DNA of 10,696 bases. Source: a virus. Its lineage: Duplodnaviria; Heunggongvirae; Uroviricota; Caudoviricetes. Shown in pieces: positions 6,959 to 8,130 of the stretch (within the stretch, counting starts at the first letter, position 1; the number at the start of each line of letters is the position of its first letter). A program made the position numbers and the translations under genes. The DNA is taken from the IMG/VR virus record IMGVR_UViG_2534681978_000009, positions 1 to 10,696 of that record. One strand, written 5' to 3'. Under the pieces are notes generated by a model. That model did not search any database. It worked only from the letters and a program-made list of their open reading frames with translations, and was not told the DNA's origin.

Positions 6959-7001
6959 TCCCGCATTTCGGCGGGAATGAGGACCATGACTGTTAAAGAG
7001 C
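6959..7001 (-). promoter_or_regulatory. nutR (boxA plus boxB) between cro and cII
   Basis: Minus strand GCTCTTTAACA (boxA-like), then a 14-nt spacer, then TCCCGCCGAAATGCGGGA (boxB hairpin). Both elements are identical to those at 8090-8130 in the PL leader. Confidence 0.6.
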
Positions 7002-7008
7002 AATTTGC

Positions 7009-7194
7009 TTATGCCGCTTTGCGGTAAGCGCTTTCTTGATACTTCAGGGCGCCAGCTGTAACGACTTCCAGTCGATAGGCGTCTTTCTCTGGGATGACTT
7101 CCTTCCACTGAGAGACTGCTGCGTCGCTAATGCCTAACGCTTTAGCTACAGCACGCTGGGTTCCGAAGTGGTCGATAACATCTTTCTTGTACAT
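7009..7194 (-). CDS. cro: Cro repressor (P22 type)
   Basis: 61 aa, MYKKDVIDHFGTQRAVAKALGISDAAVSQWKEVIPEKDAYRLEVVTAGALKYQESAYRKAA matches P22 Cro as I recall it. GGAG Shine-Dalgarno 7 nt upstream. Confidence 0.9.
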   Translation of the reverse strand: MYKKDVIDHFGTQRAVAKALGISDAAVSQWKEVIPEKDAYRLEVVTAGALKYQESAYRKAA

Positions 7195-7208
7195 AGACTC
7201 GCTCCGAA

Positions 7209-7274
7209 ATTAAAGAACACTTAAATTATCCACTAAAGGAATCTTAAGTCAAGTTTATTTAAGATGTCTTAACT
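7209..7274. promoter_or_regulatory. OR region: three 18-bp repressor operators with divergent PR (minus) and PRM (plus)
   Basis: Operators ATTAAAGAACACTTAAAT (7209-7226), ACTAAAGGAATCTTAAGT (7232-7249) and ATTTAAGATGTCTTAACT (7257-7274) share the pattern AtTaAAG-N4-CTTaAaT. PR on the minus strand: -35 TTGACT (plus 7247-7252), 16-bp spacer, -10 GATAAT (plus 7225-7230). Confidence 0.6.
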
Positions 7275-7925
7275 ATGAAAACTCAATTGATGGGAGAGCG
7301 CATTCGCGCTCGGAGAAAAGAACTCAAGATCAGGCAGGCCGCACTTGGAAAGATGGTCGGCGTGTCTAATGTTGCCATATCTCAGTGGGAACGCTCTGAG
7401 ACAGAGCCAAATGGAGAGAATCTTCTCGCCCTGGCTAATGCGTTGAAGTGTTCCCCTGACTATCTGATGAAAGGAGAGGAAAGTCTTTCAAACATTGCCT
7501 ATCACAGTAGGCATGATCCAAGAGGGTCATACCCTCTGATTAGCTGGGTGAGCGCAGGATGCTGGATGGAAGCTGTAGAACCATATCATAAGCGTGCAAT
7601 AGATAACTGGTACGATACAACCGTAGACTGTTCAGAAGATTCGTTTTGGTTGGACGTGAAGGGAGACTCAATGACGGCTCCGGCCGGTCTCAGTATCCCT
7701 GAAGGAATGATAATACTCGTCGATCCTGAAGTAGAGCCGCGTAACGGGAAACTGGTAGTTGCAAAGCTCGAAGGAGAAAACGAGGCAACTTTCAAGAAGT
7801 TAGTTATTGATGCAGGCAGGAAGTTTCTAAAACCACTTAACCCACAATATCCGATGATCGAGATCAACGGAAACTGCAAAATCATCGGCGTAGTTGTCGA
7901 TGCAAAACTAGCAAACCTTCCATAA
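7275..7925 (+). CDS. c2: Prophage repressor, P22 c2-like (HTH plus S24 LexA-type autopeptidase domain)
   Basis: 216 aa. HTH QAALGKMVGVSNVAISQWERSE, Ala-Gly cleavage site in VSAGCW, Ser/Lys dyad in GDSM and KLVVAKL. Overall very similar to P22 c2 as recalled. The ATG directly abuts operator 3. Confidence 0.9.
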   Translation: MKTQLMGERIRARRKELKIRQAALGKMVGVSNVAISQWERSETEPNGENLLALANALKCSPDYLMKGEESLSNIAYHSRHDPRGSYPLISWVSAGCWMEAVEPYHKRAIDNWYDTTVDCSEDSFWLDVKGDSMTAPAGLSIPEGMIILVDPEVEPRNGKLVVAKLEGENEATFKKLVIDAGRKFLKPLNPQYPMIEINGNCKIIGVVVDAKLANLP

Positions 7926-7947
7926 GGGGGCATTCGCCCCTTTTTTA
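7926..7947 (+). terminator. Rho-independent terminator after the repressor gene
   Basis: GGGGGC-ATTC-GCCCC followed by TTTTTTATTT, immediately after the c2 stop. Confidence 0.55.
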
Positions 7948-7989
7948 TTTCCTTTAAAAATCAAAGCCAAACTTAAGTTACGAAAGAAA

Positions 7990-8043
7990 ATTTAAGTTTT
8001 CTTCAAAAATACTCTTGACCATTAATTAAAGAGATCTTAAATT
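7990..8043 (+). promoter_or_regulatory. OL/PL: leftward early promoter with operators
   Basis: -35 TTGACC (8015-8020), 16-bp spacer, -10 TTAAAT (8037-8042). Operator ATTAAAGAGATCTTAAAT (8025-8042) has the same consensus as the OR sites; a second operator-like site is ATTTAAGTTTTCTTCAAA (7990-8007). Confidence 0.5.
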
Positions 8044-8089
8044 TAAGCCATCAGCAGGACGCTGGTAGCCAAACGGAACAGATTGGCAG

Positions 8090-8130
8090 GCTCTTTAACA
8101 TTGATGGGATTGTCCCGCCGAAATGCGGGA
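8090..8130 (+). promoter_or_regulatory. nutL (boxA plus boxB)
   Basis: GCTCTTTAACA (8090-8100), then a 12-nt spacer, then TCCCGCCGAAATGCGGGA (8113-8130). Identical elements to nutR on the opposite strand. Confidence 0.6.

Follow-up and report, generated by a model that had tools for sequence, protein, structure and literature searches.

Candidate nutR and nutL sites paired with an HK620-type N protein in the immunity region of a CUS-3-like phage or prophage of Escherichia coli

The DNA analyzed in the current study is a stretch of 10,696 nucleotides (nt) of a Caudoviricetes virus (IMG/VR record IMGVR_UViG_2534681978_000009, positions 1 to 10,696), referred to below as the window. Two short sequences occur in it once in each of two divergent early operons, and they are discussed here as the N-utilization (nut) sites of an N-type antitermination system. 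A first-pass annotation had placed an 11-mer and an 18-mer in each operon and had read the arrangement as that of nut sites; all of its coordinates and sequences were borne out, and the arrangement itself is upheld by position, orientation, neighboring genes and the annotations of phages 21 and HK620. The 11-mer, GCTCTTTAACA, has two exact copies in the window (6991-7001, minus strand, and 8090-8100, plus strand); with one mismatch allowed, at least two matches were obtained in 5 of 200 shuffles. The 18-mer, TCCCGCCGAAATGCGGGA, also has two exact copies (6959-6976, minus strand, and 8113-8130, plus strand), and none of 200 shuffles contained any match, even when two mismatches were tolerated.

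The layout of the two sites was read directly from the window between 6700 and 8700. On each transcribed strand the order is boxA, spacer, boxB, and the two sites are divergent. The minus-strand site, nutR, is composed of a boxA (GCUCUUUAACA, 6991..7001), which is identical to boxA-R of phage 21 and lies within the nutR feature of HK620, a 14-nt spacer (GUCAUGGUCCUCAU, 6977..6990) and a boxB hairpin, UCCCGC-CGAAAU-GCGGGA (6959..6976), recognized by repeat and fold and equal to that of the HK620 nutR feature. The plus-strand site, nutL, has the same boxA (8090..8100), a 12-nt spacer (UUGAUGGGAUUG, 8101..8112) and an identical boxB hairpin (8113..8130), which equals that of the HK620 nutL feature. 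A boxA of the CGCUCUU(U)A type thus stands 5' of the hairpin at both sites.

The genes around these elements are those of a lambdoid-type immunity region. Eight nt upstream of nutR ends cro (7009..7194, minus strand; P22_Cro family, Pfam PF14549, E = 9e-28), and the first gene past nutR encodes a cII/C1-type activator (6607..6900, minus strand; Pfam Phage_CII, E = 5e-48, over residues 1-90 of the 97-residue form). A cI/C2-type repressor with HTH_3 and Peptidase_S24 domains is encoded on the opposite strand (7275..7925, plus). Consensus scanning placed a PR promoter (TTGACT-16-GATAAT) at 7225..7252 on the minus strand and a PL promoter (TTGACC-17-TAAATT), homologous to PL of phage 21, at 8015..8043 on the plus strand. 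When the annotated PL start of phage 21 is transferred by homology, to 8050, the nutL boxA occupies +41 to +51, and the pair of elements spans about +41 to +81, between PL and the N gene. Since the minus-strand pair follows cro and precedes cII, and the plus-strand pair lies just after PL, the two occupy the canonical positions of nutR and nutL. Each early operon carries one sense-oriented copy, as in the annotated layouts of phage 21 and HK620.

The N antiterminator gene (8444..8749, plus strand; 101 amino acids) lies downstream of nutL, is preceded by the Shine-Dalgarno sequence GGAGG (8434-8438, plus strand) and matched PHROG 271, 'anti-termination protein N-like' (E = 3e-36). Its N-terminal arginine-rich motif (ARM), NARNRRRARRQAQR, extends from N12 to R25 and is encoded by codons 8477-8518 (plus strand). 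The motif had been quoted in the first-pass annotation as different from that of lambda N, which is correct, although the core A-x-x-RRR-x-RR is still shared by the two proteins; with P22 the window N has the leader MTV(V)ITY in common. In an alignment of the ARMs of lambda, P22, phage 21 and the window, A13, R16, R20 and R21 are invariant, and Glu28 of the window N stands at the position of lambda Trp18. Residues 1-27 are identical to those of HK620 N, the C-terminal part resembles that of phage 21, and residues 63-98 align to residues 75-109 of lambda N in PDB 6GOV (E = 6e-5).

Folded alone, the 18-mer forms a stem of 6 base pairs (bp; U-A, three C-G, G-C, C-G) with the 6-nt loop CGAAAU (-9.7 kcal/mol, z = -2.9). 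In its context the nutR hairpin gains two further A-U pairs, giving an 8-bp stem, and the nutL hairpin is retained in both the minimum-energy and the centroid folds of the whole 411-nt N leader. These short, stable hairpins, 12 nt (nutL) and 14 nt (nutR) past boxA, are not intrinsic terminators, since neither is followed by a U-tract (ACCAAAGAG lies 3' of nutL and AUAUAACGC 3' of nutR). A GC stem with a CGAAAT loop, distinct from the lambda GAAAA pentaloop, had been described before; the stem and the difference from lambda stand, whereas the loop appears to be better viewed as a GAAA tetraloop with an unpaired C on one side and an unpaired U on the other, closest to the P22 nutR boxB, than as a variant of a lambda-like pentaloop. 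It probably forms a plain GAAA (GNRA-type) tetraloop closed by a C.U mismatch.

Compared with the known boxB types, the 6-nt, C-G-closed loop CGAAAU differs from the 5-nt, U-A-closed GAARA loop of lambda. It also differs from the phage 21 loop CUAACC, as the ARM does from that of phage 21 (GTAKSRYKARR), despite the phage 21-like immunity region. The GAAA core lacks the C of the P22 GACAA core, and the ARM is not the GNAKTRRHERRRK of P22. The HK620 type, by contrast, has the same boxB and the same ARM.

A possible 'alternative NUT structure' was also considered, in which part of the nutL boxA (GCUCUUU, 8090-8096) pairs with AAAGAGU at 8134-8140 and encloses boxB. The pairing is present in the minimum-energy fold and was rejected (z = -0.56); the complement, AAAGAGU, is missing from other nutL variants and from nutR.

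The relationship between boxB type and ARM type was examined in 80 IMG/VR loci chosen by the central/C-terminal 57 residues of N, a selection blind to both ARM and boxB, together with 4 loci from a scan of GTDB species-representative genomes (84 in total). The HK620 ARM is present in 80 of the 84 loci, and 76 of these 80 carry the HK620 boxB at both sites (one of them with a point-mutated boxA). As for the remainder, one has boxB at nutL while the nutR position falls past the end of the locus, two are too short to assess and one is without a nut site. At locus L132 the HK620-type N is fused directly to unrelated DNA (3400-3910), and no nut site is found within 4 kilobases (kb). The other four loci have the phage 21 ARM, all with phage 21 boxBs at both sites. 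ARM and boxB types were not mixed in any of the 81 loci that could be assessed, nor in any individual phage record that was looked at. Occasional substitutions occur in the spacer and flanks, including a few point variants of the nutR spacer, while boxB is invariant in every copy seen.

Individual phages gave the same picture with exchanged modules. In phage 21 the ARM, the N C-terminus and the boxBs are all of the phage 21 type, and in HK620, HK630 and HK140 all three are of the HK620 type. HK629 combines the phage 21 ARM with the HK620 C-terminus and has phage 21 boxBs; conversely, the window and CUS-3 combine the HK620 ARM with a C-terminus of the phage 21 type and have HK620 boxBs. PA28 and mEpX1 carry the phage 21 ARM with phage 21 boxBs. 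On related C-terminal modules, Sf6 has the lambda ARM with a lambda boxB at nutL, and SH2026Stx1 has the P22 ARM with both P22 boxBs. The boxB type therefore appears to follow the N-terminal ARM type, and neither the C-terminal module of N nor the immunity region, a view that is backed by these natural chimeras and that supports the co-varied N/boxB specificity proposed in the first-pass annotation. The comparative evidence is clean in suggesting that specificity resides in the first 30 or so residues of N.

Two other loci deserve mention in their own right. In locus L191 (3740-3800) an HK620-type nutL and N are joined to a lambda-like PL/OL, and boxA has a point change (GCACTTTAAC). Phage mEp213 (L209, JQ182733) has two N genes, namely a lambda-type N with lambda-type nutL and nutR and, further downstream, an HK620-type N (positions involved: 30879-31151 and about 31510; also 32304-32636, 32905 and 34112). 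Upstream of the latter there is only a broken remnant of boxB (GCCCTCCGAAATGCGGGA), without a boxA, and no intact HK620 boxB was found anywhere in the mEp213 genome, so that this gene looks like an orphan N.

The source of the system was found by tracing the N-terminus of N, which led to phage HK620. Its record (AF335538) contains the features 'nutL; putative N-utilization leftward' and 'nutR; putative N-utilization rightward', of 42 nt and 46 nt. The HK620 nutL, GGCTCTTTAACATTGATGGGATTGTCCCGCCGAAATGCGGGA, is letter-identical to that of the window, and nutR is identical from boxA through boxB, the base before boxA being C in HK620 and T in the window. Since the nut sequences and residues 1-27 of N are shared, the element is, as judged from sequence, an HK620-type N/nut system that is already annotated and common, and not a new variant. 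Taken together, the data leave us with little doubt that the sites are nutR and nutL of N antitermination of the HK620 type, carried by an E. coli phage or prophage that resembles CUS-3 (P22-like) and has a phage 21-related immunity region. Loss of the elements from nut positions in relatives had been named beforehand as an observation that would speak against such sites; instead, they are conserved there in related phages, with the boxB type matching the ARM type. The sequences, their fold, position and conservation and their strict pairing with one ARM type are what the analysis itself shows.

In the proposed mechanism, the PR and PL transcripts would carry boxA, which would recruit NusB and NusE, and the spacer that follows would contact NusA. 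A contact between NusA and the spacer has been described (PMC2724277). The N-terminal arginine-rich helix of N (about residues 12-28) is predicted to bind the boxB hairpin, and the central and C-terminal regions of N, akin to those of phage 21 and lambda, may hold NusA and RNA polymerase as in PDB 6GOV. The polymerase modified in this way would read through terminators located after nutR/cII, after the P gene and after N. Binding of N to boxB, dependence on Nus factors and read-through are all expected here by analogy with lambda, P22 and phage 21.

Of the rival explanations, one alone carries real weight; it accepts the nut sites and holds that N does not discriminate its own boxB from those of lambda or P22, the differences in boxB and ARM being drift. 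The ARM core common with lambda (A-x-x-R-R-R-x-R-R), the four positions invariant across the four classes and the GAAA of the loop, which resembles the lambda and P22 loop cores in being a GNRA sequence, are all in line with it. In the study of Cocozaki et al. 2008, the boxB requirements of P22 and lambda reportedly overlap, and some GNRA-like hexaloops are said to work with P22 N. However, the comparative data argue against drift: the ARM/boxB classes remain unmixed in the assessable loci and the phage records, although the phages freely swap C-terminal modules and immunity regions. We therefore consider a non-discriminating N rather unlikely. The opposite proposal goes further, in that the HK620-type pair would make up a fourth specificity class of ARM and boxB, orthogonal to those of lambda, P22 and phage 21, with a true GAAA tetraloop closed by C.U and no flipped-out base, forming a natural intermediate between the P22 and lambda modes of recognition. 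This is put forward tentatively, as a possibility that falls slightly short of an even chance.

It could also be argued that the modules are mere conserved patches of homology, or mosaic boundary sequences, which serve the exchange of immunity cassettes and have no function at the RNA level. At least 11 unrelated immunity regions are bordered by the same boxA-spacer-boxB modules, there is a sharp change of sequence immediately 5' of boxA and, at nutL, also immediately 3' of boxB, the CUS-3 record labels the interval from cI to N 'bsq5; boundary sequence', and in mEp213 a junction lies inside the boxB remnant. In all 167 of the fetched loci that have one boxB copy on each strand (146 distinct interiors), however, the two copies face outward, so that both are in sense orientation on divergent transcripts, and the interiors fall into at least 11 unrelated sequence clusters of 1.1-3.4 kb; one of these loci carries PL operator sequences like those of lambda. 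The non-palindromic boxB loop is strand-specific, boxA matches the NusB/NusE site of rrn, and the boxB type goes with the ARM of N, not with the flanking DNA. Use as recombination junctions thus appears to be a consequence of the conservation rather than the reason for it, and the boundary-sequence explanation is very improbable. Equally hard to credit is the idea that the hairpins act alone, independently of N, as terminators, attenuators or pause/processing signals: each is stable, GC-rich and early in its operon, and the N leader is highly structured, but neither boxB site has a U-tract or was called by the terminator scan, and autonomous hairpins would leave unexplained the fixed partnership both with boxA and with a single ARM type.

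Several points weigh against reading the elements as HK620-type nut sites and should be kept in mind. In the searchable open-access full text no experiment was found that addresses this pairing of ARM and boxB, and in HK620 the sites are themselves annotated as 'putative'. The Pfam N_peptide profile scored below its cutoff on N (17.5 versus 27.9 bits). An Rfam scan at E <= 1, which covered the entire window, found no family, a result that is uninformative, as Rfam apparently has no nut/boxB family. A covariation test of the stem was impossible because boxB is invariant, including in copies that were not chosen by boxB, and offers no compensatory changes, although such invariance fits strong constraint. 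Since many of the loci come from E. coli prophages that hardly differ from one another, the counts do not represent independent events. Finally, the distance from nutL to the ARM codons is only about 100-330 nt, and physical linkage could account in part for the pairing of the two; the pairing of nutR, which is kept across exchanged immunity regions, is the more telling evidence.

The N leader (8050-8460, plus strand) is unusually structured (z = -4.9). Downstream of nutL it contains a long imperfect hairpin (8146..8216, plus strand), which is also present in phage 21 and HK620-type leaders; the same sequences occur upstream of the second N of mEp213. The hairpin occupies the place of the RNase III processing site that controls N translation in lambda, and it may play the same role, as suggested by analogy with the lambda N leader. 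Between this hairpin and the ribosome-binding site of N lies a 212-nt AT-rich insertion (8219-8430, plus strand). The leader of the HK620-type N of mEp213 lacks it, and those of HK620 and phage 21 are shorter by about 200 nt. CUS-3 alone carries the insertion among 50,697 phage records, and it occurs in 134 of 5,426 E. coli genomes, where it falls into two identity classes (>=95% and about 80%).

In the PR operon, the genes further downstream encode a replication protein O (5363-6310, minus strand; Phage_rep_O) and a DnaB-like P protein (3990-5366, minus strand; DnaB_C). The gap between nutR and cII contains a hairpin, GCGCAU-AAGUUG-AUGCGC, followed by a U-rich stretch (6934..6951, minus strand), which was read from the sequence and may represent tR1; HK620 has tR1 annotated directly after nutR. 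The hairpin is weak, and the terminator scan made no call there. A strong terminator-like site, with an 8-bp stem followed by UUUUUAUUU, lies just past the P gene (3941..3964, minus strand) in a tR2-like position, and HK620 has tR2 annotated just after P. In the PL operon a terminator-like site past N (9212..9229, plus strand) is a candidate tL, and a second lies past N and the next ORF (9355-9376, plus strand). These downstream sites in both operons are consensus matches, as is a terminator-like hairpin after cI/C2 (7924-7943).

Two open reading frames (ORFs) overlapping the nut sites were rejected. A long form of cII starting at 6987, from an ATG in the nutR spacer, runs through boxB and is annotated in CUS-3 and HK140; the 97-residue form from 6900 fully covers the Pfam CII profile, and the longer start is probably an annotation error that hides nutR. 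An ORF of 129 amino acids (8043-8432), rejected as a gene, is antisense through nutL and PL, and no GGAG-type Shine-Dalgarno sequence was seen before its ATG; no family-library search was made with its protein.

Further features were noted in both operons. An oop-like antisense RNA segment (6611-6661, plus strand) overlaps the 3' end of cII and contains a strong terminator (6631-6658) followed by a U-run; it matches the HK629 feature 'similar to lambda oop RNA' and had no Rfam match. Directly 3' of N lies an ORF of 149 amino acids (8758-9207, plus strand; PHROG 3054), and further along the PL operon an ORF of 340 amino acids (9342-10364, plus strand; PHROG 1376 and 21365) contains a long, highly charged repeat region rich in Glu, Ala, Lys and Arg. 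No Pfam match was obtained for either.

The boxB 18-mer occurs in at least 119 IMG/VR contigs, and the 55-nt nutL module in 499 of 5,426 complete E. coli genomes (about 9%), the type strain included. As an annotation, the present result adds little, since the same sequences are labelled as putative nutL and nutR in HK620 and are widespread in E. coli. In many present records, among them those of CUS-3, HK140 and RefSeq prophages, however, the sites are left unannotated or are covered by a too-long cII or hypothetical ORF, and such calls could be corrected with a simple rule: boxA, then 12-14 nt, then UCCCGCCGAAAUGCGGGA. The ARMs of lambda, P22, phage 21 and HK620 on shared C-terminal modules, each with its own boxB, form a natural domain-swap series. 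The uncharacterized HK620 ARM/hairpin pair could extend the set of RNA-tethering tags and, if it is orthogonal, would be a ready-made addition.

The 2.2-kb region is 98% identical to phage CUS-3 (CP000711, a P22-like prophage of E. coli K1 RS218), an identity that holds across cII, cro, cI, nutL and N; CUS-3 also shares the nut sites and the 212-nt insertion. Its record is without nut annotation and has cII extended through nutR, and its last N residues differ from those of the window. Phages Gally, N7, JEP4 and IME10 are 98-99% identical over 70-87% of the region. The window differs from HK620 in its immunity region, in the extra 212 nt of the N leader and in the C-terminus of N, which is …CSGSICLPNVAIYAAGYRKSKQLTAR in HK620 and of the phage 21/lambda kind, …YYRKPRSEMGVTCSGRQKQRGKSIPAYYD, in the window.

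Over the cro-cI part, phage 21 and imm21 relatives show about 86% identity to the window. In the phage 21 record boxA-L/nutL and boxA-R/nutR are found at homologous positions, and boxA and its 5' flanks are the same as in the window, with divergence starting a few bases past boxA. The boxBs of phage 21 (CTCTCAACCTAACCGTTGAGA on the left, TTCACCTCTAACCGGGTGAG on the right) also have a 6-nt loop, CUAACC, and their stems, unlike those of the window, are not the same at nutL and nutR. The N protein of phage 21 shares the central domain LARKIALKLSGCVRADKAASLGS and has a similar C-terminus, whereas its ARM, GTAKSRYKARRAELIAERR, differs.

The gene 24 protein of P22 has the N-terminus MTV(V)ITY seen in the window N, and the core of the window boxB, CCGCCGA-AAUGCGG, corresponds to the P22-type nutR CCGCCGACAACGCGG minus one C and with one C-to-U change. 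A pyrimidine-pyrimidine pair flanks a GNRA-like core in both. P22 differs in its GACAA pentaloop core, its spacer lengths and its ARM sequence. In the nuclear magnetic resonance (NMR) structures of N-boxB complexes, the boxB pentaloops of both lambda and P22 adopt a GNRA-like fold with one base flipped out. In P22 it is reportedly the third loop base that is flipped out (NMR structure of Cai et al. 1998); the HK620-type loop would have no such extra base. In lambda, both early operons show the same boxA-spacer-boxB architecture, and N residues 75-109 (PDB 6GOV) are homologous to the C-terminus of the window N; boxA has no extra U, and boxB has a 5-bp stem and a GAAAA or GAAGA pentaloop closed by U-A. 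The boxA of the window is the rrn-consensus form with the extra U, the rrn boxA being UGCUCUUUA and that of lambda CGCUCUUA (PMC2724277).

The comparison of boxB/ARM pairs that the first-pass annotation had recommended was thus carried out, and the window proved distinct from lambda, P22 and phage 21 and identical to the HK620 class. The lambda class has boxA CGCTCTTA, boxB GCCCT-GAAGA/GAAAA-AGGGC and ARM DAQTRRRERRAEKQAQW. The P22 type has boxA GCTCTTTA, boxB GCGCT-GACAA-AGCGC on the left and ACCGC-C-GACAA-C-GCGGT on the right, and the ARM given above. In the phage 21 class, the boxA 11-mer of the window is combined with a CUAACC loop on differing stems and the ARM GTAKSRYKARRAE. The window has the same 11-mer, the boxB TCCCGC-C-GAAA-T-GCGGGA on both sides and the ARM NARNRRRARRQAQR of HK620.

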